DNA of 13,293 nt. It comes from a virus (taxonomy: Duplodnaviria; Heunggongvirae; Uroviricota; Caudoviricetes). A program made the translations under genes and the position numbers. This document shows positions 1,633 through 13,293 of this stretch, one piece after another. Positions within the stretch are counted from its first letter, which is position 1; every line of letters starts with the position of its first letter. Below the pieces are notes generated by a model. The model was not told the origin of the DNA. It worked only from the letters and a program-made list of their open reading frames with translations, and ran no database searches. Where the stretch lies: the IMG/VR virus record IMGVR_UViG_2563366821_000011; one strand, 5' to 3'.

Positions 1633-1663
1633 TCTGATCCCATGGTAATTCAGCTGTTATTTT

Positions 1664-2650
1664 CTATTTAAGAATAAAACGGTATTTACTGTCAGGAGTG
1701 CTTTGCTGATCAAGTAGCAGTGAACGACATGGAGCAGTCAAAACCCGAGCATAACTACCATCAGGGCTTATGTTAATGTAACAAACCTTGCCCTTAACAC
1801 TATAATTTTCGGGGACGGATGCCTTTGCTGATACAGTAAATTTAAGGGTATGCCAGCCCGTTTTTTGCTTGTAGCTTGAAACCGAATGGAAATCATCTGA
1901 GTACTTATTTAACCCTGGAAACATGCTGCGCAGTGCGGGGATGGAATCTTCTATTATTTTATCGTTGGTTTTAATGTTAAAAACGCTGGTTTCAGTAGAA
2001 GCTACTGCTTTGGCATTTCCCCATTTACCAGCGAACACAATCATTCCCACGAAAAATATTGCTACAAGAACTAACACTCCCCCCAACACTACTACATGAG
2101 GCTTCCGGCTTCTGGTTGGTACAGTTGCGACTGATTTTGCACCGCTTTCCGATGGAGGTGATAGAGTTTTACTCTCATCACGAATATTCAGCAGATCATC
2201 AAAATAACCAAACACAGCCTGCAACTGCTCTTTGTCTAGGCCTTTAAGATGGGTTGTACCGAAATGCTTCAGACAGTATCTGTCACGGTCAAGACGATAC
2301 CCAGGGTCAGTAAGCGCCATTATTTTGCTGACCAGAAGATTACAGTCCTTCATATTCTGGATCTGTTGTGCATATCTCTGAAGGATCTCAACCGCACCAT
2401 GATAATCAGCCGCAGTCATTTCATTAACTGTTTTGGTATTAAGTTTCGTGTGGATCGTCATCCATAGCTCGCGCTTACTTTCCCCCAGATCAACCAATTC
2501 ATCCATCAATCTGTGTAAATCGCGTTTTTGCAGCAACGAAATTGGTTGCTGGGCCGAAGGAAGTATGTCAGCAGAATAGTTATGAATGGTAACATCACCG
2601 CTGACAACGTTACCCACATCCCCGTTAACTGTTTGCTTCTCTTTACTCAT
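1664..2650 (-). CDS. Hypothetical single-pass membrane protein, 328 aa, translationally coupled to the prophage repressor
   Basis: 987-bp ORF in an AT-rich region (about 37-40 percent GC by hand count). Its ATG overlaps the repressor stop in an ATGA. One strongly hydrophobic segment (VVVLGGVLVLVAIFFVGMIVFAG, about aa 185-207) is flanked by basic residues. The N-terminal motif GDVGNVVSGDVTI resembles the repressor C-terminal tail. I recognise no known family. Confidence 0.7.
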   Translation of the reverse strand: MSKEKQTVNGDVGNVVSGDVTIHNYSADILPSAQQPISLLQKRDLHRLMDELVDLGESKRELWMTIHTKLNTKTVNEMTAADYHGAVEILQRYAQQIQNMKDCNLLVSKIMALTDPGYRLDRDRYCLKHFGTTHLKGLDKEQLQAVFGYFDDLLNIRDESKTLSPPSESGAKSVATVPTRSRKPHVVVLGGVLVLVAIFFVGMIVFAGKWGNAKAVASTETSVFNIKTNDKIIEDSIPALRSMFPGLNKYSDDFHSVSSYKQKTGWHTLKFTVSAKASVPENYSVKGKVCYINISPDGSYARVLTAPCRSLLLDQQSTPDSKYRFILK

Positions 2651-3108
2651 CTTCTCTTGGTATTTTTGTTCATTATTCCACCTGTTCCTATGGTTACGTT
2701 ACCTTTGATAACATTCCCCAGAACATCTCCATGAATAACCTGTTCCGCCCGTTCTCTGGAGGAGCCAGTAGTCAAGGCCGACAAAACTGAACCTTTGACC
2801 TGTAATGGTGCCTGCCGGTAGTGCTGCAGTAACTCCATTTCATCACGTGATAAAGTTATACCTGATGACTCCCCGGTAAGAATGAACTGTACATTGGCCC
2901 CAATTCTTGCAAAGGCTGCAAGTAACTCACCTCCGGGAACAGCAACCCCTCGTTCATATTTCCCCCACATTTCTCTTGAAACGCCACAAAGGGCTGCTAC
3001 TTCAGCCTGCTTGAGTGATAACCGCGAACGCTCAGCTTTGAACCGCGACGCGCAAAGAGAATCAAAATTCACACAAACCTCATTGACAATGAGAACAATA
3101 GTTCTCAT
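2647..3108 (-). CDS. XRE/Cro-C1-type HTH transcriptional repressor (prophage c-repressor analogue), up to 153 aa
   Basis: HTH motif LSLKQAEVAALCGVSREMWGKYERG. Transcribed divergently from the early operon, as for Mu c. The start is uncertain: ATG at 3108 lies inside the operator palindrome and has no SD (possibly leaderless), while an in-frame GTG at codon 13 is preceded by GAGG. Confidence 0.75.
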   Translation of the reverse strand: MRTIVLIVNEVCVNFDSLCASRFKAERSRLSLKQAEVAALCGVSREMWGKYERGVAVPGGELLAAFARIGANVQFILTGESSGITLSRDEMELLQHYRQAPLQVKGSVLSALTTGSSRERAEQVIHGDVLGNVIKGNVTIGTGGIMNKNTKRR

Positions 3109-3111
3109 AAT
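3083..3111 (+). promoter_or_regulatory. Putative sigma70 early promoter (Pe-like): -35 TTGACA (3083-3088), 17-bp spacer, -10 CATAAT (3106-3111)
   Basis: Consensus -35, ideal 17-bp spacing and a 5/6 -10, lying 48 bp upstream of the ner-position gene whose SD is AAGGAG and ATG is at 3159. Confidence 0.5.
3089..3108. promoter_or_regulatory. Putative operator: perfect palindrome ATGAGAAC-N4-GTTCTCAT within the early promoter spacer
   Basis: 8-bp perfect inverted repeat arms with a 4-bp spacer between the -35 and -10 of the rightward promoter. It overlaps the first codons of the repressor ORF. Confidence 0.5.
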
Positions 3112-3158
3112 CTATCACATATAAAACAAACATCATTGCATCAACAAAGGAGACAACA

Positions 3159-3347
3159 ATGACTTCCGAACAAGTTAAAAATCTCTTCCGTCAGCGTGGT
3201 ATCACGTTTACCCGCTGGGCCGAAGAACACGGCTACAGCCGCAATGAGGTCTATCGTGTTCTCAATGGACAGACCAAAGCTCGTTACGGCAAAGCCCATG
3301 AAATTGCCGTAAAACTGGGATTAAAACCCACGTCAAATGCGGCATAA
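3159..3347 (+). CDS. Small HTH DNA-binding protein in the ner position (Ner/Cro-like early regulator), 62 aa
   Basis: Strong SD AAGGAG 7 nt upstream. HTH-like segment TRWAEEHGYSRNEVYRVLNGQ. First gene of the rightward operon, opposite the repressor. Not obviously similar in sequence to Mu Ner. Confidence 0.65.
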   Translation: MTSEQVKNLFRQRGITFTRWAEEHGYSRNEVYRVLNGQTKARYGKAHEIAVKLGLKPTSNAA

Positions 3348-3399
3348 ATTTTCCACATATGCAACAGGTTATCACATATTGCAAAAATGGAAATGTGAC

Positions 3400-3708
3400 A
3401 TGAGTAAAGTAAATATTTCCAGTTCTGGGACCCGCATCCTACGTGTACTCAAAGCTCTACGCGGTCATGCTCTGAACGGTGTTTCTAACGGTGAACTGGC
3501 ATCAGCCCTGGGGGAGTCCCCGGCGAATATCAATCGAGCACTTAATACCCTTATTGAAGAGGGACTGGCCATGAAATTAGAGAACGGACGTTTCGCACCG
3601 GGAATCCAGTTACTACAGATCGCCATGGCTCACAGTCACGAGATGGCGCGTGCACAGGATCGTATTAACGAAATCAACCAACGAGTTATTTCAGGTAGTC
3701 GTTTGTAA
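3400..3708 (+). CDS. Winged-HTH DNA-binding protein (IclR/MarR-like N-terminal domain only), about 103 aa
   Basis: Motif ILRVLKALRGHALNGVSNGELASALGESPANINRALNTLIEEGLAMK resembles an IclR-type wHTH. Start chosen at ATG 3400 (weak SD); an alternative in-frame ATG at 3337 overlaps the upstream gene. Confidence 0.55.
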   Translation: MSKVNISSSGTRILRVLKALRGHALNGVSNGELASALGESPANINRALNTLIEEGLAMKLENGRFAPGIQLLQIAMAHSHEMARAQDRINEINQRVISGSRL

Positions 3709-3718
3709 GGAGTAATCA

Positions 3719-4633
3719 ATGGGACGCACCAAATCACCCGTTAACACTGAACTGAATGTTGAGGTTCCGCTGTCAGATAACATCAATGTCAATTTGAACG
3801 CTATGACACAGCATCGCATGGAAATTATGCAGCAGTTTGGTGATGGACTGCCTTATGAACGTGATCGCATTGTTCACGAAGCACGTTTTTATATGGCGCA
3901 GAGTGCTGAATCTATGCTGGAAGCGGGTAAGCGGCTGATCATCTTAAAAGAAAATGAGCCACACGGTGATTTTACAAACATTTTAGAAAATGAACTCGGA
4001 CTTGCACCACAAGTTGCTCGCCGCATGATGCAAGCCAGTATGAAGTTTTTGGGAGAAGGTGATGAGCCAACAAAACGCTCAACGTTGAGCGTTTTGGGGA
4101 AAGCCAAACTGTACGACCTGATGGTTCTGGATAATGAAGAACTTGATGAATTGGCCGACGGCGGCACAGTTGCCGGCCTGACGCTTGACGACGTTGATCG
4201 CATGTCAGTACGTGAATTGCGTCAGGCCCTGCGCGAAGCGCGCGAAACCAACGCAGCACAACAGCGCGTACTCGCCGACAAAAATGAAAAAATAGATTCA
4301 CTCTCCACCAGACTGGAGAAGAAATCCCGTATTCAGCCGCCTGAGCCTGATGAGGAGGTTAAGAAGCTGCGGGCGGAAGTAACAGCATTAGCGGTTGAGG
4401 CGGAATCTGCTATCGCCGTCCGACTGTCCAGCGCTTTTGAGACGCTGTGCGCATATTGTGCTGAAAACATGATTGATACCCCCAGAGACTTCATGGCAGG
4501 CCTGGTCTGTCAACTGGAAAGCACAGCGCGTAGCCTGCGCTCCACATTTGACCTGCCGGACGAGCCAACAGGCAATGCAGCGCCTTCATGGCTGACTGAG
4601 CCGACGCCACAGATTAACGGGCTGGAGGCATAA
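3719..4633 (+). CDS. Hypothetical early protein, DUF3102-like N-terminal region plus coiled-coil and acidic C-terminus, 304 aa
   Basis: SD TAAGGAG 6 nt upstream of ATG. Motif HGDFTNILENELGLAPQVARRMMQASMKF resembles what I recall of DUF3102. Stop is 3 nt before the transposase ATG. Confidence 0.6.
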   Translation: MGRTKSPVNTELNVEVPLSDNINVNLNAMTQHRMEIMQQFGDGLPYERDRIVHEARFYMAQSAESMLEAGKRLIILKENEPHGDFTNILENELGLAPQVARRMMQASMKFLGEGDEPTKRSTLSVLGKAKLYDLMVLDNEELDELADGGTVAGLTLDDVDRMSVRELRQALREARETNAAQQRVLADKNEKIDSLSTRLEKKSRIQPPEPDEEVKKLRAEVTALAVEAESAIAVRLSSAFETLCAYCAENMIDTPRDFMAGLVCQLESTARSLRSTFDLPDEPTGNAAPSWLTEPTPQINGLEA

Positions 4634-4636
4634 CCA

Positions 4637-6406
4637 ATGAATGCTGCCCTGACTGAACGACTGGTTTATGTCGCCCGCGCGGCACGTGACGCGGGGCATG
4701 GTAAACGCGGTGCAATATACGACGCTGCCTGTGCTGAACTTGGCATGTCCCGCGCCACTCTGCTGCGCAGGCTGAAGGAGGTCTCTGTGACTGATAAACG
4801 CAAAAAACGCGCCGATGCCGGGCGCAGCGCCCTGACCCGCGACGAAGCCGCGCTGATATCTGCCACACTGCGTGAGGCCACCCGCAAGAACGGTAAGCGT
4901 CTCTATTCCATCGCAGATGCAGTGGAAACCCTACGGGCTAACGGCTTTATCACCGCAGGCAGAACAGATGAAACCACCAGTGAGTTTTTCCCGTTGTCTG
5001 AAGATGCCATCAGCCGTGCTCTGCGTAACTATGGCCTGCACCCGGAACAACTGGATGCCCCTGCACCACATACCGAAGTGGCCAGTCTGCATCCCAATCA
5101 TGTCTGGCAGATTGACGCCTCACTCTGCACGCTTTACTACCTGAGCAATGGACATAAAGGGCTGCAGGTGATGGACAGCGCGAAGTTCTACAAGAACAAG
5201 CCCGCTAACCTTGCCCGTATCGCCAGTGACCGCGTGTGGAGTTACGAGATTACCGACCATGCCAGCGGCTGGATTTACGTTGAGTATGTGACGGGCGCGG
5301 AATCAGGTGAGAACCTGTGTTCTGTGCTTATCAACGCCATGCAGGAGCGTGGCGGCGCAGACGTGCTGCACGGCGTGCCGAAAATACTCTATCTCGACCC
5401 CGGCTCGGCAAACACCGCGGGTATGACGAAAAACATGTGCCGCTCACTGGGCATCGACCTGATAGCGCACAAGCCGCATAACGCCCGCGCCACCGGACAG
5501 GTGGAAAAGGCGCGTGACATTATCGAACGCAAGCTGGAGCCGGGGCTGAAGTTCCGGCCGGTTCACAGTCTGGAAGAACTCAACGCGCTGGCCGCGAAAT
5601 GGCGCAGCCACTTTAACGCCACGGCTGTTCACAGCCGCCACGGTAAAACCCGCACGGATATCTGGCTGAAGATTACTGCTGAGCAGCTGAAAAAAGCGCC
5701 TTCCGTTGAGGTATGTCGTGAACTGGCTGTGGCGGCACCAGAACTCCGCAAAGTCACGCCAAAACTTCGTGTCTCGTTCCGGGGCACTGAATTTGACGTA
5801 TCAACGGTACCGGGCGTACTGGTTGGTGAAAAACTGATGATTACCCGTAACCCATGGCGCAGCGATGTGGCACAGGTGGTTCTGACCGGTGAGGACGGCC
5901 ACGAGACGTTCTTCCTGGTCGAAGAGGTCAGAAAGAACGAGTTTGGCTTTGCTGAAGGCGCGGCGGTATTTGGCGAAAGTTACAAAGCCCTGCCGGAAAC
6001 CTCGGCACAGATGGCGGCAAAAGAAACTGAAGCGCTGGTTACCGGTACAGACAACGCTGCAGATGCAGCCGCCGCACGCAAGGCGAAGGCGCTGCCGTTC
6101 GGCGGGCGGCTTGACCCGTATAAACATATCGACGACACCACACTTCCGGCCTATATGCCGAAGCGTGGTCAGGCCTCTGACGTACGCGGGCCGCGCACTG
6201 AACAACGTCCCATGACTCATGTGGAGGCCGCGAAAGCCCTGCGCGATAAGTTCAGCGCCGACGGCCTTACCTGGACGCCGGAACATTACCGCCAGTTAAC
6301 GGCACAGTACCCGGACGGCGTACCGGAAGCTGCACTGGATGAAGTCATGGCCACGCTGACCACGCCGGCACGCAGCAGTGTTATCAGCATTGTTAACGGC
6401 AACTGA
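4637..6406 (+). CDS. Mu-like DDE transposase (A protein), 589 aa
   Basis: N-terminal HTH, then an rve-type catalytic core with D160 (HVWQIDAS), D254 (LYLDPGS) and E290 (ATGQVEKA; D-35-E spacing). Located immediately upstream of the AAA+ B gene. Confidence 0.9.
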   Translation: MNAALTERLVYVARAARDAGHGKRGAIYDAACAELGMSRATLLRRLKEVSVTDKRKKRADAGRSALTRDEAALISATLREATRKNGKRLYSIADAVETLRANGFITAGRTDETTSEFFPLSEDAISRALRNYGLHPEQLDAPAPHTEVASLHPNHVWQIDASLCTLYYLSNGHKGLQVMDSAKFYKNKPANLARIASDRVWSYEITDHASGWIYVEYVTGAESGENLCSVLINAMQERGGADVLHGVPKILYLDPGSANTAGMTKNMCRSLGIDLIAHKPHNARATGQVEKARDIIERKLEPGLKFRPVHSLEELNALAAKWRSHFNATAVHSRHGKTRTDIWLKITAEQLKKAPSVEVCRELAVAAPELRKVTPKLRVSFRGTEFDVSTVPGVLVGEKLMITRNPWRSDVAQVVLTGEDGHETFFLVEEVRKNEFGFAEGAAVFGESYKALPETSAQMAAKETEALVTGTDNAADAAAARKAKALPFGGRLDPYKHIDDTTLPAYMPKRGQASDVRGPRTEQRPMTHVEAAKALRDKFSADGLTWTPEHYRQLTAQYPDGVPEAALDEVMATLTTPARSSVISIVNGN

Positions 6407-6416
6407 GGAGGAAAAC

Positions 6417-7583
6417 ATGCTGGTACTGAAGCAGCAACTGAAAGAGGCCCGTATCCCACAGGCGGTGGTGGCGAGAGCTGTCGATGTTTCTGAGGCCACG
6501 CTGGCCCAGATTGTGAATCATAACGCGTGGCCCCGCACCAGCCCCGGAGAAGTGCGCCGGCGTCTTGCGTCCTGGCTGGAAAGTCAGGGGATTGATACAA
6601 CGAAGAGTTTTGATGCTGTACAGGGCGCAGCCACGCCCCGTACAGCGGGTACCACAGATAAAACGAGCCTCAGTGAGGAAGAGAATATGTTACTCAAAAA
6701 ACAGGTGTTATTTCCAGCAACCAAAAAAGCGTTTGGTCTTTTCCGTGACCCGTTCGCCGATGAAGCCATGCAGGGTTCTGATGATGTGTTCACCACCCCG
6801 GACATTCGCTACGTGCGTGAGGCGTTGTACCAGACAGCCCGTCATGGTGGGTTTATGGCCGTCATCGGTGAGTCCGGTGCGGGTAAATCCACGCTGCGCC
6901 GCGACCTGACTGAACGTATCAACCGCGAGAATGCGCCGGTAATTGTTATCGAGCCATACATCATCGCTATGGAAGACAACGATGTGAAAGGGAAAACCCT
7001 GAAGGCAGCAGCGATTGCCGAAGCCATTATCAGTACCATCGCACCACTGGAAAGCATCAGACGCAGTCAGGACGCCCGCTTTCGCCAGTTGCATCGCGTC
7101 CTGAAAGACAGCAGCCAGGCGGGGTTCAGCCACGTTTTGGTGATTGAGGAGGCCCACAGTCTGCCCATTCCGACACTGAAACACCTCAAACGCTTTTTTG
7201 AGCTGGAGTCCGGTTTCAAAAAACTGCTGTCCATCGTGCTGATTGGCCAGCCGGAACTGGCGACAAAACTGTCTGAACGCAATATGGAAGTCCGTGAAGT
7301 CGTTCAGCGTTGTGAGGTGGTCGAACTTCTGCCTCTGGACAATAACCTTGAAGAATTTCTGACGTTCAAACTGCAACGGGCCGGTAAACAACTGACGGAC
7401 ATTATGGACGCCAGCGCAGTGGATGCCATACGTGCCCGCCTGAGCAATCCGGGAAGTCATCGTAAAAATATGGTCAGCCTGCTGTATCCGCTGGCCGTCA
7501 GTAACCTGGTGATAGCCGCCATGAATCTGGCCGCTGAAATCGGGGTTCCACAGGTCAACGCTGACGTTGTCAAAGGGGTTTAA
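6417..7583 (+). CDS. Mu B-like AAA+ ATPase (transposition target DNA activator), 388 aa
   Basis: SD GAGGAGG directly upstream. N-terminal HTH (QAVVARAVDVSEATLAQIVN), Walker A GESGAGKST and Walker B VLVIEEAH. An in-frame internal ATG with its own SD lies at 6687. Confidence 0.85.
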   Translation: MLVLKQQLKEARIPQAVVARAVDVSEATLAQIVNHNAWPRTSPGEVRRRLASWLESQGIDTTKSFDAVQGAATPRTAGTTDKTSLSEEENMLLKKQVLFPATKKAFGLFRDPFADEAMQGSDDVFTTPDIRYVREALYQTARHGGFMAVIGESGAGKSTLRRDLTERINRENAPVIVIEPYIIAMEDNDVKGKTLKAAAIAEAIISTIAPLESIRRSQDARFRQLHRVLKDSSQAGFSHVLVIEEAHSLPIPTLKHLKRFFELESGFKKLLSIVLIGQPELATKLSERNMEVREVVQRCEVVELLPLDNNLEEFLTFKLQRAGKQLTDIMDASAVDAIRARLSNPGSHRKNMVSLLYPLAVSNLVIAAMNLAAEIGVPQVNADVVKGV

Positions 7584-7585
7584 TA

Positions 7586-7855
7586 ATGAAATCCACCACA
7601 GGTATCAACCAGCAAATCAGCAAAGTGCAGTCAGCCATTATGGCGCTTAAGGCGACGAACACGGATGTACAAAGCATCACCATCAGGGGTAACAAACCTG
7701 TCATCCGCGTTTCCCGGAGTGCGCATTGCATGCGCATGCTTGAGCAGGGAAAGGCCTGTTATCTGTATACCGGACATGACCACAGGGGATATTTCCGTCA
7801 GGGCGTTTTCGAACTGCACGGCTGTCGCGTCGTGTGGCCGGAATCTTTGTGGTAA
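7586..7855 (+). CDS. Hypothetical early protein, 89 aa
   Basis: ATG 3 nt after the B stop, with SD-like AAGGGG upstream. No recognisable motif. Confidence 0.55.
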   Translation: MKSTTGINQQISKVQSAIMALKATNTDVQSITIRGNKPVIRVSRSAHCMRMLEQGKACYLYTGHDHRGYFRQGVFELHGCRVVWPESLW

Positions 7856-7882
7856 TCAGCACAACAGGAGGAGTCATAAAAT

Positions 7883-8413
7883 ATGGCAAAAAGTACAAAA
7901 GGGGCAAAACGTATCAAAGCCGCAGCAGCACTCTGGGTGCCGGGGACACGCGAAGAGGTCATTGAGGGAATCAGACTGCTTGGTGACGCGCAACGTGAAC
8001 TGGTCAGGGCTGAAACAGAAATGAATGACACCATTGGCGACATCACTGCACGTTATGCCCCGCTCACCGAGAGCCTGAAAAAACGCATGGCCGAACTGCA
8101 GTCCGGTATCCAGACATGGTGTGAGGCGCACCGTGATGAACTGACCGGCAACGGGAAGGTGAAGTTCGCTAACCTCACCACCGGCGAGGTGCAGTGGCGA
8201 AACCGTCCGCCGTCAGTCAGCATTCGCGGGGCGGATAATGTCATTGAACTGCTGAGACGTCTGGGGCTTGAGCGCTTTATTCGTGTAAAGGAGGAAATAA
8301 ATAAAGATGCCATTCTGAATGAAAAAGAGGCCGTGAAAAATATTCCCGGTATTTCCATTAAAAGCGACATTGAGGATTTTTCAATAATTCCTTTTGAGCA
8401 GGATGTGCAGTAA
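7883..8413 (+). CDS. gam: Host-nuclease inhibitor Gam (Mu Gam family, Ku-like DNA-end binding), 176 aa
   Basis: Strong SD AGGAGG. Co-linear with Mu Gam as I recall it: MAKxxKRIKxAAAxxVP..., TEMNDxI, WCEAxRDELT, PPSVSIRGxDxV, GLxRFIRxKxEINKxAIL and C-terminal EDFSIIPFEQ. Confidence 0.9.
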   Translation: MAKSTKGAKRIKAAAALWVPGTREEVIEGIRLLGDAQRELVRAETEMNDTIGDITARYAPLTESLKKRMAELQSGIQTWCEAHRDELTGNGKVKFANLTTGEVQWRNRPPSVSIRGADNVIELLRRLGLERFIRVKEEINKDAILNEKEAVKNIPGISIKSDIEDFSIIPFEQDVQ

Positions 8414-8510
8414 ACACACCACGTTAATTATTTAATAAAAACATTTTCTTTTTTATTCCGGCGTCAGCGCCGTGGGCTTCTGCACGCCGGAAACAGAGGA
8501 GAATTAAATT

Positions 8511-8705
8511 ATGATATTTAAATGTATTCAGTGCGAGAGGGATATAACAGCCCTGCGTTTTCACAGCGCCATCGCCGTGATGTCCGGTAAGTATCACATA
8601 CCTGCAGTACGTGTCACCCTGGTCTGCCCGTACTGCAGCCAGCATTTTTCGGCGGACGTGCCCGTCATGGAATTCTCCCGCCCTGACAGGGAGGACGCGC
8701 AATGA
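8511..8705 (+). CDS. Small zinc-ribbon protein, 64 aa
   Basis: SD GAGGAG. Two CxxC pairs (C5/C8 and C39/C42). Its stop overlaps the next start in an ATGA. Confidence 0.55.
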   Translation: MIFKCIQCERDITALRFHSAIAVMSGKYHIPAVRVTLVCPYCSQHFSADVPVMEFSRPDREDAQ

Positions 8706-8974
8706 TTACCCCACAGGAAGCACGACAGCGCACCCGAACCCTTGTTGAACACTATGTCAACGAGTGTGAATGCCGCGACCTCACCGATGTGAATCACGTC
8801 CTGACGGCGCTAATCAGCATGGCCACACAGGCCATTGTGGCGACCAACGGAAAGGAGGCTGCCCTGCAGGTACTGATGAACACACTCACCCACACGGCAG
8901 AGCATGAGGTGCCGTACCGGATGGAAACCACTGCAGAAGGCGGCCTGCACATCACCGTCAGCCGGAAGCACTGA
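8702..8974 (+). CDS. Hypothetical early protein, 90 aa
   Basis: ATGA overlap with the upstream ORF. Codon usage matches its neighbours. Confidence 0.5.
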   Translation: MITPQEARQRTRTLVEHYVNECECRDLTDVNHVLTALISMATQAIVATNGKEAALQVLMNTLTHTAEHEVPYRMETTAEGGLHITVSRKH

Positions 8975-8983
8975 GGGCGCGGC

Positions 8984-9280
8984 ATGACACGAAACACCGA
9001 ACTCACCCGCACCGCCCTCTACCGTCTGGCCCTGCAGCGTTTCGGGCCGGACGCACAGGCCCTGAAACTGGCAGAAGAGGCCGCTGAACTGGCGGCCAGT
9101 GCCGCCCGCAACCTGAACGGACAGGGCAGCGAAAGTGACCTCGCGGCAGAGCTGGCAGACGTGGAAATCATGACAGAGCAACTGCGCCTTCAGGGGATGG
9201 ACCGGCTGATTGACTTCCACAAACAGAAAAAACTGGAACGTCTGGCTGCACGACTGGGCGTGATTTACACGAACGAGTAA
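8984..9280 (+). CDS. MazG-like nucleoside triphosphate pyrophosphohydrolase domain protein, 98 aa
   Basis: Motifs KLAEEAAELAASAARN and AAELADVEIMTEQL resemble the acidic EExxE and E-x-x-D metal-binding helices of small MazG/HisE-like NTP-PPases. SD GAGGG upstream. Confidence 0.6.
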   Translation: MTRNTELTRTALYRLALQRFGPDAQALKLAEEAAELAASAARNLNGQGSESDLAAELADVEIMTEQLRLQGMDRLIDFHKQKKLERLAARLGVIYTNE

Positions 9281-9294
9281 CCGGGAGGCATTCA

Positions 9295-9510
9295 ATGGCT
9301 GACATACTCAGGGAAATCACCGCATGGACACTGATTCTTACTGGCCTGGCGACATGCCTCAGTGCGGGGGCAGCCCTGGCTGCCCTGCTGATGCACATAA
9401 CAACACAGTGGTTATGGGAAAAGCTTAAAGCAGCATACAGCCTGAAAGAGCTGTCCGACGCTGTCCGGGCATGGAAACGGCAGAAAAATACCGGAGATAC
9501 AGAACAATGA
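9295..9510 (+). CDS. Small membrane protein, 71 aa
   Basis: SD GGGAGG. Hydrophobic helix ITAWTLILTGLATCLSAGAALAALLM. Its stop overlaps the next start in an ATGA. Confidence 0.5.
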   Translation: MADILREITAWTLILTGLATCLSAGAALAALLMHITTQWLWEKLKAAYSLKELSDAVRAWKRQKNTGDTEQ

Positions 9511-10190
9511 CAGACCAGAATAAACACATTGAGAAACTGAAAAAGTTGCTGGCGCTGGCCGCATCCGGCAACCCGCACGAGGCCGCTCTGGCACTGCGCC
9601 GAGCCCGTAAACTGATGGATGTTCACGGCATCACACATTCCGACATTGCTATGAGTGATATTGATGAAACCATCAGTCACTACTGGCCGACAGGCAGTCT
9701 CCGTCCACCGCGCTACATGCTGGGCCTGATGAACATCATCCGCGAGGTATTTGGTGTTAACTCCATCATTCACCCCGGCACGCACCCGTCTGTGGGGTTC
9801 TACGGCAACCGGGAACGTGCGGCACTGGCTGCATACACCTGGGAAGTGCTGGCCCGTCAGCTGAAAAAGGCGCGTCAGCAGTATATCAGTGCACAGAACA
9901 AAAGAATAAAAACCGCCACCCGCACCAGCCGTGGAGACCAGTTTGCCGAAGGCTGGGTGCTGGCCGTTATCAGTGAAATACAGTCCTTTGCCCTGACCGA
10001 TGATGAGCGTGAACTGATGCAGCAGTGGCTGGAACATAAATACCCGCAGACGCAAACCACCAGGGCGCGTAAACCGGGAAGAAGCCGCAATGGCGACGCC
10101 TCGCGCTATGCGGGGTTTCGTGAAGGGCAGAACGTCAGACTGCACCGCCCGGTCAGTGGGCAGGAACAACAGAAACTGGAGGCCAGATGA
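9507..10190 (+). CDS. Hypothetical early protein with DUF2786-like N-terminal motif, 227 aa
   Basis: N-terminus IEKLKKLLALAASGNPHEAALALRRARKLMDVHGI matches the conserved DUF2786 motif as I recall it. ATGA overlap with the upstream gene, SD GGAGA. Confidence 0.6.
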   Translation: MTDQNKHIEKLKKLLALAASGNPHEAALALRRARKLMDVHGITHSDIAMSDIDETISHYWPTGSLRPPRYMLGLMNIIREVFGVNSIIHPGTHPSVGFYGNRERAALAAYTWEVLARQLKKARQQYISAQNKRIKTATRTSRGDQFAEGWVLAVISEIQSFALTDDERELMQQWLEHKYPQTQTTRARKPGRSRNGDASRYAGFREGQNVRLHRPVSGQEQQKLEAR

Positions 10191-10417
10191 TTACGCTATC
10201 AGGTAACAGCCGGAAATTAAAAGCCTGCCGAATATCTGCCAGATACCTTTTTGCCCGCGCCTTTTTTAAGAACGTCAGGCCGGGGATCACAATTGGTGTT
10301 ATTGCCGGACGCGAACAGGTTGAAAAATACATGTCAGGTGCATGGTGGAATAACGACCCTGTCATTGCTGCCCGTAATATTCATATCAGTTGGGGGGATA
10401 TTCAGAATGACGGCTGA
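10187..10417 (+). CDS. Hypothetical small protein, 76 aa
   Basis: ATGA overlap with the upstream gene; basic N-terminus. Weakly supported. Confidence 0.4.
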   Translation: MITLSGNSRKLKACRISARYLFARAFFKNVRPGITIGVIAGREQVEKYMSGAWWNNDPVIAARNIHISWGDIQNDG

Positions 10418-10622
10418 ATCTGTTGTATGTGCCCTGTTCTGGTATTGTTTTGTCGGTTGGTGTACTGCTGAACTGCACCGCCGTTCAGGGTTTTATTCAC
10501 GTTACAGTGGTGCCGGCTACTGGATTAGCTGGTCGGTGATGTTCCTGTGCTGGCCTGTGGCGCTTCCTTTATATGTCGATTATATCGGTGGCGCAGGTAA
10601 AAGGAGCAACGATGATGACTAA
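10407..10622 (+). CDS. Small membrane protein, 71 aa
   Basis: SD GGGGGGA 8 nt upstream of ATG. Two hydrophobic, Trp/Cys-rich segments (VVCALFWYCFVGWC and WISWSVMFLCWPVALPLYV). Confidence 0.45.
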   Translation: MTAESVVCALFWYCFVGWCTAELHRRSGFYSRYSGAGYWISWSVMFLCWPVALPLYVDYIGGAGKRSNDDD

Positions 10623-11064
10623 ACAACGTCTTATCCAGCTCATTCATATTGCCCGTAATGAACTGGGTATGGATGAAGACACCTACCGCCAGATGTTACA
10701 GGGGCTGACCGGTAAAGCCTCAACCAAAGGAATGGATACCACACAACTAAACTGCGTGCTGGAATCCATGAAAAGGAAAGGCTTTCGCGTTAAGCCTGCC
10801 AGAAAAGCCAGCTCCGGTTTACCGCTGGATAACCATCCGCAGTCCAGGAAAATCCGTGCGCTATGGCTTGAAATGGCTGCTGCCGGCATTGTTCGTGACC
10901 GTTCAGAAAATGCATTAGCGCGGTGGATCAAGCGGGAAACGGGCATCAGCGCCCTGCGCTGGCTCAATACTGAACAGGCAAGCAGTGTTATTGAGAAACT
11001 GAAGAAGTGGCAGCGCAGAGCTGCGGGAGTAAAACATGAGCGACCTGAATCAGTTTCGAAGTAA
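10612..11064 (+). CDS. gemA: GemA-like protein (Mu gp16 family, DUF1018), 150 aa
   Basis: SD AAGGAG 5 nt upstream. N-terminal motif KQRLIQLIHIARNELGMDEDTYRQMLQGLTGKAS is typical of Mu gp16/GemA-like proteins. Lies immediately upstream of mor, as in Mu. Confidence 0.7.
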   Translation: MMTKQRLIQLIHIARNELGMDEDTYRQMLQGLTGKASTKGMDTTQLNCVLESMKRKGFRVKPARKASSGLPLDNHPQSRKIRALWLEMAAAGIVRDRSENALARWIKRETGISALRWLNTEQASSVIEKLKKWQRRAAGVKHERPESVSK

Positions 11065-11434
11065 AGGGCCGGAACTCCTGGTGGAACTGGCACAGCATAC
11101 CTCTGAGACCGTTCGCGAGATTATTGATATTGAGCCCGCAATTGCCGACCAGATTGGTCAGGCCGTCGCGAACCGAATGATGCAGGTCTGGGGCGGGCAA
11201 AACGTTTATTTCCCGATGGGCATGGTATGGAAGGTCAGTCAGCGCGACCGGGAAATCTTCAGGGAGTTTAACGGACGCAACCACCACGAACTGGCCCGCA
11301 ATTTTGGTGTTTCGCTTCAGTGGGTCTACAGCGTGGTTAAGCGGGTCAGAAAAGAAGAACTGGATCGGATGCAGGGCAGGTTGTTTGATGAAGATCTGCC
11401 AGAGGAGACGAAAGACGTTAACAAATCCAGATAA
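11036..11434 (+). CDS. mor: Mor-family transcriptional activator (middle operon regulator), 132 aa
   Basis: Motifs GGQNVYFP and FNGRNHHELARNFGVSLQWVYSVVKRVRK match the Mor/C family HTH region. Last gene of the early operon. Confidence 0.85.
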   Translation: MSDLNQFRSKGPELLVELAQHTSETVREIIDIEPAIADQIGQAVANRMMQVWGGQNVYFPMGMVWKVSQRDREIFREFNGRNHHELARNFGVSLQWVYSVVKRVRKEELDRMQGRLFDEDLPEETKDVNKSR

Positions 11435-11479
11435 TTCCTGCTTGTTAAAGTCCTTTCAAAAATCTCCTTATTGTATAAG

Positions 11480-11511
11480 AGCACGGTAGACCCTTTACCG
11501 TGCTTTTTTTA
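11480..11511 (+). terminator. Rho-independent terminator-like hairpin (stem AGCACGGTA / TACCGTGCT, 7-nt loop, T-run)
   Basis: Perfect 9-bp inverted repeat immediately followed by 6-7 T, 46 bp after the mor stop. It could also serve as a dyad protein-binding site. Confidence 0.6.
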
Positions 11512-11548
11512 TGCTCTCTATGTAATATTCAGGATGCAGGGAGAAAAT

Positions 11549-12181
11549 ATGTTTGACGTTTCGTTATTAAATCTGCCATGGGCAACACTGGTGACCCTGA
11601 CCAGTGGCTATATTGGGTATTTTATTGCGAATGTGGGGCTGAAGGATCACCACAAACCCATTGAGGTGACTTTTTCTTCGCTGATTTTTGGCCTGACAGC
11701 AATGATGGCTTACCAGGCTGTTATGTGGGCAGGTCTGAATGCCTGGCTGGCAACCCCCCCAGCACTTCTGTGTGCCGTTACATGCGGTGCGTGGTGGCGC
11801 AGGTACGGTCGCAAATGGATGTACAGATTACTGTGGAATAATGATATTTCATGGTCTGACAATACCAGCTCAGCATGGCAGGCAATGTTTGATCAAACAG
11901 GCTTCAGCGTCACCGAGGTCAGAGTGATTCTTCGCGATGGTTCCGGTATGATGTCACGGCTGCCAGGGAACTTTGAAGAGTGGCCTAACGGTCCGTTTAC
12001 CCTGGGAAATAAAGGCGATATGGTTCTTTACGTCACGCACAGCAGCCCTTCAGGAAGTAACGAATGGGAAGAGTATAAAGGCGTGGTTGATAAGTACTGG
12101 GGAGCTCTGGCAACCTATATTCCAGCAGATCAGATTGCCAGAGTGGAGATCAGGCGCGTTCGTGCAACGAACGATGAATGA
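11549..12181 (+). CDS. Hypothetical membrane protein (three N-terminal TM helices plus a soluble C-terminal domain of about 120 aa), 210 aa
   Basis: SD GGGAGA 7 nt upstream of ATG. Three hydrophobic segments in the first 85 aa, followed by RRYGRK. Occupies the position where Mu carries C. No family recognised. Confidence 0.65.
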   Translation: MFDVSLLNLPWATLVTLTSGYIGYFIANVGLKDHHKPIEVTFSSLIFGLTAMMAYQAVMWAGLNAWLATPPALLCAVTCGAWWRRYGRKWMYRLLWNNDISWSDNTSSAWQAMFDQTGFSVTEVRVILRDGSGMMSRLPGNFEEWPNGPFTLGNKGDMVLYVTHSSPSGSNEWEEYKGVVDKYWGALATYIPADQIARVEIRRVRATNDE

Positions 12182-12343
12182 TGTTTATTTTTTCCCTGGA
12201 GCAGGAGCTGCCGGCATAGTGGTTTTATTGGCAGAGGAAGACGATTCTCCTTTTCTACCGGAATCGCGCTCGAACGTCACAATGTGCTTGCTTTTGGGCT
12301 TTTCTGAGTAATCCAGGCTGTCATGCTTATTGTTTTGAGTAGT

Positions 12344-12421
12344 CATTGGAATCATCCTTTTTGTTACGGGTCATGTTTCAGCAAACTCGATTCTAAGTTG
12401 CCAGGAAGGATGATTTCAATG
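12344..12421. repeat. Inverted repeat, 16 bp arms (CATTGGAATCATCCTT / AAGGATGATTTCAATG, 15/16 match) separated by 46 bp
   Basis: Direct reading of the sequence: arms at 12344-12359 and 12406-12421. Confidence 0.5.
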
Positions 12422-12499
12422 CCCGACTTATCTATCGTATAGCGGAAAAGAATTTCAGTTCTGTTCACCAGAACCCATGTTAACCCACTCCAATTCGTT

Positions 12500-12532
12500 A
12501 TTTATCTCACGGATCCCCCTTCATTTATCTCA
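12500..12532. repeat. Direct repeat ATTTATCTCA x2 (12500-12509 and 12523-12532), 23-bp register, next to the dgcQ junction
   Basis: Exact 10-bp direct repeat, each followed by a GATC-containing segment, lying just inside the foreign DNA. Confidence 0.4.
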
Positions 12533-13293
12533 TGTCTGATCAACCAGTAGTTATTACTGTCTACCGGAACACTGACGGTAACCTGCGGTTCAGTATTGCT
12601 GGCGTGTTCCGGTTGCGAAGTGAACCAGCGTACCGCGCGGTGACGATTTTCTCGTTGTGAATGGCCGATAAACCAGGGTTGGGTGACATAGCCGTAATAA
12701 CGCGTTGGTACATTGCGCGTAAACAAGGTCGGCAGCGTCGAAACGTAAAATCCAGCACGCGAGACATACACCGCCTGTTCAACCATCGACGAGGAGTTGT
12801 GCGCCAGTCGCAGCAAGTAACCAACTTCCAGTGCAGCGGTAATTTCATTGTCGAGGCTTTCATTTTCGCGAGACAGGAGATTCCCCTCGCTGACTAATGC
12901 ATCCGATACGCCATTGACTGGCAGGGTGCGCCGTCGGTTGAGTTCGATTTGCCAGGTGTGCTCGTCGCGATGCTGTTCGAACTCGGTTACGGCATTACGC
13001 AGAGAGGTGAAATCCAGTGGCGCCACGAGAGCTTCGCGCATGCCATTACGCAAAAAGATCAGTTTGTCGACGTTATACTGCAAATGCTTATCGAGCGCGT
13101 TGGCTACGTTTTCCAGATGATTACGCTGGCTGGAGATATAGGCATCTTCCAGCACCACCACTTCACGCCAGGTGAGCAAGGTGGAAAAAAGCAATACCAC
13201 GATAAAGCAGAGATTAACGATATGACCAGGCCCCAGGCGGCGTGCGAGTTTTTTCAACCAGCTCTGGTTTTCCATTTTTGTCTCGTGCTGCAC
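12502..13293 (-). pseudogene. dgcQ: 5-prime fragment of a DgcQ/YedQ-like membrane-anchored diguanylate cyclase gene (N-terminal TM and periplasmic sensor domain only; GGDEF domain absent)
   Basis: The ORF starts at the window edge (GTG) and reads [15 protein letters not shown]..., with a signal-anchor TM ([18 protein letters not shown]) and a periplasmic-type domain. It ends after 263 aa with a short unrelated tail ([13 protein letters not shown]) and has no GGDEF motif. Identity is from memory of E. coli YedQ (about 564 aa). Confidence 0.55.

Follow-up and report, generated by a model that had tools for sequence, protein, structure and literature searches.

A DUF3102 protein encoded beside the transposase of BcepMu/B3-type prophages and a dyad in its gene as the candidate binding site

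The window analyzed here is a 13,293-nt stretch of Escherichia coli DNA (IMG/VR record IMGVR_UViG_2563366821_000011; positions count from the first letter of the whole stretch) that contains the early half of a transposable prophage. Two genes separate the ner-position gene from that of the transposase, TnpA; one encodes a stand-alone winged helix-turn-helix (wHTH) protein and the other a coiled-coil protein of the DUF3102 family. The pair are the conserved second and third early-operon genes of the BcepMu/B3-type transposable prophages, and the DUF3102 gene contains a perfect 26-bp dyad whose variable bases change together with two residues of a predicted recognition helix in the DUF3102 protein. 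This covariation strongly suggests that DUF3102 binds DNA as a dimer at a specific site and that this site is the dyad. A role in transposition, in which DUF3102 would act as a DNA-targeting subunit alongside TnpA and the ATPase TnpB, is suggested less strongly. The principal features are listed below.

3400-3708, + strand: stand-alone IclR-type winged-helix protein, 102 aa, BcepMu gp12 / B3 ORF14 family
3719-4633, + strand: DUF3102 protein, 304 aa, BcepMu gp10 / B3 ORF13 family (PF11300 match)
3815-4252, + strand: N-module of DUF3102 (about residues 33-178), all-alpha and well conserved
3962-4051, + strand: helix-turn-helix of DUF3102 predicted from a model (residues 82-111; recognition helix 97-111, with R101 and R102)
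4071-4096, no strand: perfect 26-bp dyad, left half CAAAACGCTCAAC and right half GTTGAGCGTTTTG, the putative DUF3102 binding site (codons 118-126 of the DUF3102 gene)
4271-4561, + strand: C-module of DUF3102 (about residues 185-281), coiled coil plus helices, which follows the transposase lineage
4637-6406, + strand: TnpA, DDE transposase of BcepMu/B3 type, 589 aa (in Pfam, rve and a weak HTH_8 match only)

A dyad in the DUF3102 gene and the protein that may read it

The dyad is the longest palindrome in the window and is situated in a linker of the N-module that is modeled with low confidence. Relatives carry a palindrome of 26-30 bp at the same DUF3102 codons, with conserved outer bases (CAAAW...WTTTG) and inner bases that vary yet remain self-complementary. 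The homologous position was mapped by protein alignment; with the center refined within 12 nt by palindrome score, at least 11 of the 13 symmetric pairs were present in 47 of 65 distinct segments (23 perfect), as compared with 1 of 2369 control windows obtained by the same scan elsewhere in these genes. Covariation was evaluated on an alignment of 49 segments, the 16 segments lacking the dyad having been left out. In this alignment 93.2% of the dyad cells were paired, versus 70.9% in shuffles and 31-45% in slid controls. Ten of the 13 pairs changed on both sides, with 131 double-changed cells observed and 42.7 expected, and none of 500 shuffles attained the observed pairing and covariation values. 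The peptide encoded by the dyad is highly variable, as expected if the constraint on the DNA dominates.

No further copies of the dyad were found in the window or in 30 kb of an intact E. coli prophage. Exact copies occur elsewhere in the collection. Locus L071 has two lineage-specific copies, 43 bp apart, in the intergenic region between the repressor gene and the early operon; phage Mae-JY22 (L006) likewise has two, 44 bp apart, and L043 and L075 have one extra copy each. A 15-mer at 3027-3041 of the window, within the 5' part of the repressor gene and ~40 bp upstream of the early-promoter -35 element, resembles one dyad arm at 13 of 15 positions and is flanked by two copies of the direct repeat AACCGCGA (23 bp apart, 3019-3049). 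It matches one arm only, and that partially, and was not counted as a site.

The wHTH was rejected as the reader of the variable dyad bases, because when the loci were sorted by dyad identical wHTH recognition helices were found with six different dyads. The recognition helix of DUF3102, by contrast, varies together with the dyad. In a ranking of DUF3102 columns that excluded the residues encoded by the dyad itself, R101 and R102 ranked at the top for excess mutual information with these bases (1.06 and 0.92 bits, respectively), and V99, A96 and P97 of the same helix also scored above most other columns; wHTH columns reached at most 0.30 bits. Residue 101 follows the inner bases, with R accompanying CG in 15 of 15 cases and Q accompanying GC in 24 of 25, H, A, V or F occurring alongside either GT or AT, and S alongside GG. 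For residue 102 the pairings are K with GAAA and L with GCAA.

The recognition helix is encoded only 30-70 nt from the dyad, so shared descent may explain part of this covariation. We nevertheless argue that the correlation goes beyond descent because DUF3102 columns 103-116, which are nearer to the dyad, have lower scores, and because the same site recurs together with the same residues in distant phages, as in the pairs formed by the E. coli window and a Spirochaetia metagenome-assembled genome (MAG) and by B3 and a Usitatibacteraceae MAG. In close enterobacterial relatives the dyad and residues 101/102 are both different. The picture that emerges from these comparisons is one in which the N-module would be a helical helix-turn-helix domain, a coiled-coil dimer would recognize the dyad CAAAW-N7-RC/GY-N7-WTTTG (the slash marking the center) in its own coding sequence, and residues 101 and 102 would set the specificity for the variable inner bases. 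An R101Q substitution would then be expected to shift the preference from ACG to AGC, that is, to CAAAAGCG-type sites. The wHTH may be a second small DNA-binding member of the same cassette as the N-module and the dyad. No description of this dyad-protein specificity pair was found in the searchable literature, nor was any functional study of DUF3102, of gp10/ORF13 or of a B3/BcepMu enhancer.

The DUF3102 protein matched PF11300 over residues 65-173 (E 2e-6, 28.5 bits; cut-off 24.4) and phrog_1748 over nearly its whole length (E 8.4e-141, residues 1-302 on profile positions 1-300 of 302), which confirmed the 304-aa DUF3102 coiled-coil protein of the original prediction. The coiled coil follows the N-module and precedes a variable C-terminal part. 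A full-length AlphaFold2 model was unreliable (predicted local distance difference test score, pLDDT, 51.6) and was not used in the fold search; long helices of the C-module appear only in this low-confidence model. The N-module modeled alone had a pLDDT of 83.2 and gave ParB/KorB-like fold matches that were weak; helices 50-60 and 65-79 of this model are the basis for the predicted helix-turn-helix. Foldseek searches of PDB and BFVD with DUF3102 returned no significant match, and sequence and profile searches of PDB returned coiled-coil noise only. The similarity of one stretch to the Maf extended homology region was discarded as being at chance level (E about 0.1). Pfam searches with 20 members of the family detected no recurrent domain besides DUF3102. 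Protein searches for the family gave mostly close relatives, and the alignments are therefore shallow.

Conservation of the gene pair and the transposase lineage

The arrangement of the genes was examined in 74 genome loci from one-genome-per-species contigs (Gamma- and Betaproteobacteria and Spirochaetia MAGs). A wHTH gene lies upstream of the DUF3102 gene in 70 of these loci, a TnpA gene downstream in 71 (within 30 nt in 57) and a TnpB gene in 69. The order wHTH, DUF3102, TnpA, TnpB is common to phages PhiKM, B3, phiE255, BcepMu, phiSHP3, Mae-JY22, JBD67 and Bise, whose hosts include Escherichia, Klebsiella, Pseudomonas, Burkholderia, Stenotrophomonas and Microcystis. The phage collection contained 67 records that matched the DUF3102 protein and 69 that matched the transposase. 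The wHTH-DUF3102 module was present in 633 of 5426 complete E. coli genomes (about 12%), and E. coli proteins 100% identical to the window DUF3102 protein are in NCBI. The gene pair itself is thus ordinary, already annotated and conserved within its lineage.

Small differences in spacing were observed. In PhiKM an extra 105-aa gene separates DUF3102 from the transposase (L001 4533-4850), and an open reading frame (ORF) of ~70 aa lies between wHTH and DUF3102 in BcepMu (L004 3634-3846) and in Mae-JY22 (L006 3744-3962). In the window the TAA stop of DUF3102 at 4631-4633 is followed after 3 nt by the transposase ATG at 4637, as had been predicted. Long ORFs in L080 and L083 that suggested wHTH-DUF3102 fusions were rejected as mere ORF extensions in high-G+C DNA.

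Canonical Mu had served as the baseline for regarding the two genes as extra. In Mu, ner is indeed directly followed by A, as the Mu gene order confirmed, and A encodes the HTH_Tnp_Mu_1, HTH_Tnp_Mu_2, DDE_2 and Mu-transpos_C domains. The window does not have this layout. Its TnpA is 99% identical to the PhiKM transposase, shows no similarity to MuA by BLASTP and lacks the I-alpha, I-beta and I-gamma domains of MuA; the Mu DNA-binding and Mu-transpos_C domains are likewise absent, whereas MuA and D3112 A both carry PF02316. The prophage belongs to the BcepMu/B3 lineage and is not of the Mu type. The two genes are extra when compared with Mu, being absent from Mu and D3112, but Mu is not the appropriate reference, and in B3 and BcepMu the pair is present. 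Conservation at this position, which had been named together with a known function as grounds for giving up the prediction, holds throughout the lineage; a known function was not found, since the published literature offers none for gp10/ORF13 or gp12/ORF14 of BcepMu and B3.

The stand-alone IclR-like wHTH protein of the original prediction was also recovered, with a revised start. The ORF can be read from an ATG at 3337 (123 aa), which would overlap the stop of the ner-position gene. However, homologues in eight phages align from the Met at 3400 (M1 is invariant), the upstream extension is open in some relatives only, and RefSeq annotates 309 nt, so the true gene is 3400-3708 and encodes 102 aa. 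Its stop codon overlaps the Shine-Dalgarno sequence of DUF3102 (TAAGGAG). The protein matched Pfam HTH_IclR above the cut-off (E 1.5e-6, 28.3 bits; cut-off 22) and phrog_1368 (E 1.7e-44, residues 1-100 on profile positions 1-100 of 101), while MarR and MarR_2 scored below theirs (18.6 and 16.8 bits versus 24.6 and 27). The family profile matched the winged-helix domains of TtgV (E 1.7e-5), KdgR and IclR. These regulators share the N-terminal winged helix with the 102-aa protein, which consists of the wHTH and a C-terminal helix and is without the C-terminal effector-binding domain of the ~250-aa IclR proteins.

Both ORFs are real genes, and both are under strong purifying selection. Relative to enterobacterial relatives, the ratio of nonsynonymous to synonymous substitutions (dN/dS) was 0.05-0.08 for wHTH and 0.09-0.16 for DUF3102, as compared with 0.06-0.09 for the transposase. 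A published E. coli proteome (PMC9927464) quantified Gam, a protein annotated as DUF3102 and its HTH neighbor, which may be counterparts of the window proteins.

DUF3102, the transposase and alternative explanations

A comparison of B3 with JBD67 separates the two halves of DUF3102. Identity is 68% for the CII-like gene, 34% for wHTH, 48% for the DUF3102 C-module, 64% for TnpA and 73% for TnpB, and no match was found between the two N-modules. These identities indicate that wHTH, N-module and dyad were replaced together as one cassette, the C-module remaining with the genes for transposition. JBD-type phages retain only the C-module part of the DUF3102 protein, and phrog_4623 matches the window protein over residues 165-296.

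The N-module also accompanies a second transposase lineage. KS10 gp15 shares only the N-module (hhalign probability 97.2%) and precedes a short transposase of another lineage that is Mu-transpos_C positive and lacks PF02316; the similarity of KS10 gene 15 to BcepMu gp10 has been noted previously (PMC2628397). Among 79 IMG/VR loci of the KS10 type, a DUF3102-like gene lies upstream of the transposase in 78 of the 78 that could be evaluated, with no wHTH. These genes bear a similar CAAAT...ATTTG dyad, mostly near codons 25-34. DUF3102 genes thus accompany transposases without I-alpha in 71 of 74 loci of the BcepMu/B3 type and 78 of 78 of the KS10 type, but none was found at 30 loci with I-alpha transposases (28 from IMG/VR together with Mu and D3112). 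Conversely, an I-alpha hidden Markov model (HMM) built from Mu and D3112 matched none of the 74 DUF3102 loci. The same HMM matched the Mu-type repressor, reproducing the known homology between c and MuA.

In prophages of Arsenophonus, Symbiopectobacterium and Sodalis the divergent repressor is itself a fusion of a DUF3102 N-module to an XRE repressor like that of the window (L045 2699-3679 and L034 2698-3615, both on the - strand; also L042, L044 and L078). The fused N-module is 80% identical over 170 aa to that of the prophage's own DUF3102 gene (~100 aa identical), and a dyad copy is present inside the fusion-repressor gene. By analogy, the fusion repressor mirrors the homology between Mu c and MuA I-alpha.

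MuA binds the enhancer as well as the phage ends, and the transposition proteins of B3-like phages are different (PMC5977238). We propose that DUF3102, as a dimer bound to the dyad, acts with TnpA and TnpB as a DNA-targeting subunit, a reading we regard as evenly poised between right and wrong. DUF3102 would mark an internal phage site (in some relatives an operator site) and couple it to TnpA/TnpB, supplying in trans the role that MuA I-alpha has at the enhancer/operator and that is absent from these short transposases. Should the C-module face the transposase machinery, as its association with the transposase lineage suggests, DUF3102 would work as a separate subunit for this purpose. A more far-reaching version is that DUF3102 proteins are previously unrecognized stand-alone enhancer-binding subunits, with a C-module that recruits or activates the I-alpha-less transposase, a swappable specificity cassette, and repressors that captured the domain in order to block the site; this version is tentative, and we lean somewhat against it.

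Several observations weigh against the proposal, as do the unreliable full-length model, the refined dyad centers, the omitted segments and the closeness of helix and dyad described above. The E. coli prophage has a single dyad in the 30 kb examined, and in contrast to the Mu enhancer this dyad is 8.4 kb away from the closer of the two phage ends. Direct coupling of DUF3102 to A is not universal because the extra PhiKM gene intervenes. The mutual exclusion of I-alpha and DUF3102 rests on only about four deep lineages. Finally, an Enterobacter IncFIB phage-plasmid (L084 5899-6630) encodes a 243-aa DUF3102 protein with no transposase nearby. Its gene opens an operon in which a Mor-family activator and tail genes follow, and a dyad was not detected in the DUF3102 gene itself. 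The N-module is therefore not specific to transposition.

In the strongest alternative DUF3102, together with the wHTH, would do no more than regulate early-operon transcription: bound to the dyad in its own gene and to the operator copies of some relatives, it would be a Cro/Ner-like autoregulator or a roadblock that sets the level of transposase and ATPase from outside the transpososome. We consider this unlikely, though a serious contender. The position of the dyad inside the operon, ~540 bp upstream of the transposase gene, would suit such a role, as would the two copies in the divergent promoter region of L071, which belongs to a lineage without a ner-like gene, the phage-plasmid gene upstream of Mor, and the annotation of neighboring B3 genes as regulators. 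Left unexplained are the fidelity of the C-module to the transposase lineage while the N-module is swapped, and the restriction of DUF3102 genes beside transposases to I-alpha-less enzymes of two unrelated lineages. The original prediction had suggested that an additional DNA-binding protein provides a further layer of lysis-lysogeny or transposition control; our proposal points in the same direction.

There is only a slight probability that the protein and its site form a ParB/KorB-like centromere or DNA-organizing pair that positions or compacts phage DNA independently of transposition chemistry. A perfect palindrome within the protein's own gene and a lineage-specific specificity are what such a pair would show, and parS sites inside spo0J and the ParB-parS specificity of P1 and P7 resemble the DUF3102-dyad case. 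ParB-parS and KorB-OB likewise combine a dimeric protein, a helical helix-turn-helix with weak fold similarity to the N-module, and a perfect palindrome that may lie in the protein's own gene. DUF3102 nevertheless has no sequence-level homology to ParB or KorB, no ParB N-terminal CTPase-type domain and no detected ParA partner gene; the fold scores are weak, and its context is that of a transposable prophage. No partition function is needed because the phage integrates and replicates by transposition.

It is more improbable still that the palindrome acts as an mRNA hairpin in processing or stability, with the helix correlation reflecting genetic linkage and the proteins having an unrelated early function. 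The element does lie in a transcribed region and in a peptide linker that tolerates change. Yet symmetry and covariation extend to the two innermost pairs, where a hairpin would have its loop, and there is no enrichment of G-T pairs (11 versus 43 other mismatches), which argues that the constraint acts on double-stranded DNA and not on an RNA hairpin; exact extra copies in intergenic operator DNA are likewise unexplained by a hairpin. Least probable of all, to the point of being negligible, is the earlier suggestion of an inserted cargo or moron module outside the phage core: absence from Mu and D3112 and a G+C content slightly below that of the transposase gene (0.44-0.48 versus 0.57-0.59) speak for it, but it is refuted by the retention of the same position across many genera and phyla (about 70 of 74 genome loci), by the strong purifying selection on both genes and by the location of the variable genes of the region elsewhere, between the ner-position gene and wHTH.

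The gene pair is common in E. coli and in many proteobacterial prophages, yet it is annotated merely as "HTH domain" and "DUF3102." With a cognate site and a specificity code of two residues, DUF3102 would acquire a molecular function that can be tested. Should the link with the transposase be correct, it would explain how transpososomes are assembled or controlled in BcepMu/B3- and KS10-type phages without a MuA enhancer-binding domain and how immunity can act on transposition, and DUF3102 would constitute a natural DNA-targeting module in trans to a DDE transposase. If the link is false, the finding is that of a conserved early regulator.

The surrounding locus and comparison with known systems

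From left to right, this segment of the E. coli chromosome contains yedK, an IS1, the prophage's early half (1633 to 12542) and a truncated dgcQ. The remaining features of the locus are as follows.

920-1633: IS1 (insA/insB ORFs), abutting the prophage at 1633
2647-3108, - strand: immunity repressor, XRE-type HTH, 153 aa (HTH_31 and HTH_3 matches), divergent from the early operon
3083-3111, + strand: early promoter-like site, TTGACA, 17 nt, CATAAT (11/12 consensus match)
3159-3347, + strand: ner-position gene, HTH protein of the BcepMu gp16 family, 62 aa (TIGR04111, E 2.8e-27; phrog_925, E 1.3e-32)
6417-7583, + strand: TnpB transposition ATPase, AAA_22 / ExeA-like, 388 aa (AAA_22, E 3.7e-20; phrog_296; RefSeq start)
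12542: prophage end, with terminal 5'-TG on the - strand

Strain MSB1_4I (L086) carries an intact copy of this prophage, with lysis, head and contractile-tail genes on the left side. These genes are missing from the window, beside IS1, and the window therefore holds only the early half, next to yedK. Insertion truncated dgcQ, and in the L086 annotation dgcQ is without its C-terminus. Two copies of the repeat TGAGATAAAT, 23 bp apart (12500-12509 and 12523-12532), lie near the prophage end and are probably transposase end-binding sites. No copies of this repeat were found near the operator, as in an enhancer-like arrangement. Rfam and tRNA scans gave no matches.

The wHTH and DUF3102 genes appear to be transcribed from the early promoter together with the genes for the DDE transposase and the ATPase. 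The site at 3083-3111 was the sole promoter-like site in 2900-4800, and no terminator-like site was found between it and the transposase gene, so that the ner-position gene, wHTH, DUF3102, TnpA and TnpB look like one operon. An inverted repeat (3082-3096 / 3101-3115) overlaps the promoter-like site. The window has three copies of the motif YCACATAT, clustered within 265 nt, of which one is just past the early-promoter -10 element (3115-3122) and two are in the 52-nt gap before the wHTH gene (3353-3360 and 3372-3379). The expected count is 0.76, and three copies were reached in 8 of 200 shuffles. GGTTATCACATATYGCAAAA is kept in PhiKM, and the motif may be a regulator site or an internal promoter. 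The repressor has the position of BcepMu gp17 and B3 ORF18. Downstream of it, with a start that overlaps the repressor stop, is a gene for a 328-aa protein (1664-2650, - strand) that matched phrog_10002 (unknown function) and has an N-terminal region weakly resembling Flk (46.6 bits, well short of the cut-off). Inspection by eye showed a hydrophobic stretch in this protein, whose gene stands where BcepMu has gp18, an annotated membrane protein.

The closest known systems are those of Bcepmuvirus and Beetrevirus. BcepMu gp12-gp10-gp09-gp08 and B3 ORF14-ORF13-ORF12-ORF11 represent the same four families in the same order as the window. Window proteins are 51-57% identical to those of B3 and 33-40% identical to BcepMu gp12/gp10 over 86-95% of their length, and both phages have an in-gene palindrome at the same codons. 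The window prophage differs in that its late half is deleted next to IS1. In KS10 (gp15-gp16), as also in Curvibacter TJ1 and Ralstonia YO106_4, a DUF3102-like gene stands directly upstream of a short transposase without I-alpha, as in the window, but the transposase lineage, the C-terminal half of the protein and the position of the dyad are different and there is no wHTH gene.

The parallel with Mu is a functional one. MuA I-alpha and the Mu enhancer (the internal activation sequence, IAS, which comprises operators O1/O2) provide a DNA-binding module for an internal phage site beside a DDE transposase and its AAA+ partner, an arrangement that DUF3102 and its dyad may reproduce without any sequence similarity and with the module residing on a separate coiled-coil protein. 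In contrast to the Mu operator array, the E. coli element has a single perfect dyad inside a coding region. Mu c shares the module of MuA I-alpha, and DUF3102 is likewise shared with the repressor in some lineages, where the captured domain would recreate the repressor/enhancer logic of Mu in trans. Relatives have exchanged the DUF3102 specificity cassette but retained the remaining transposition machinery, and Mu and D108 differ by a similar swap of a specificity cassette.

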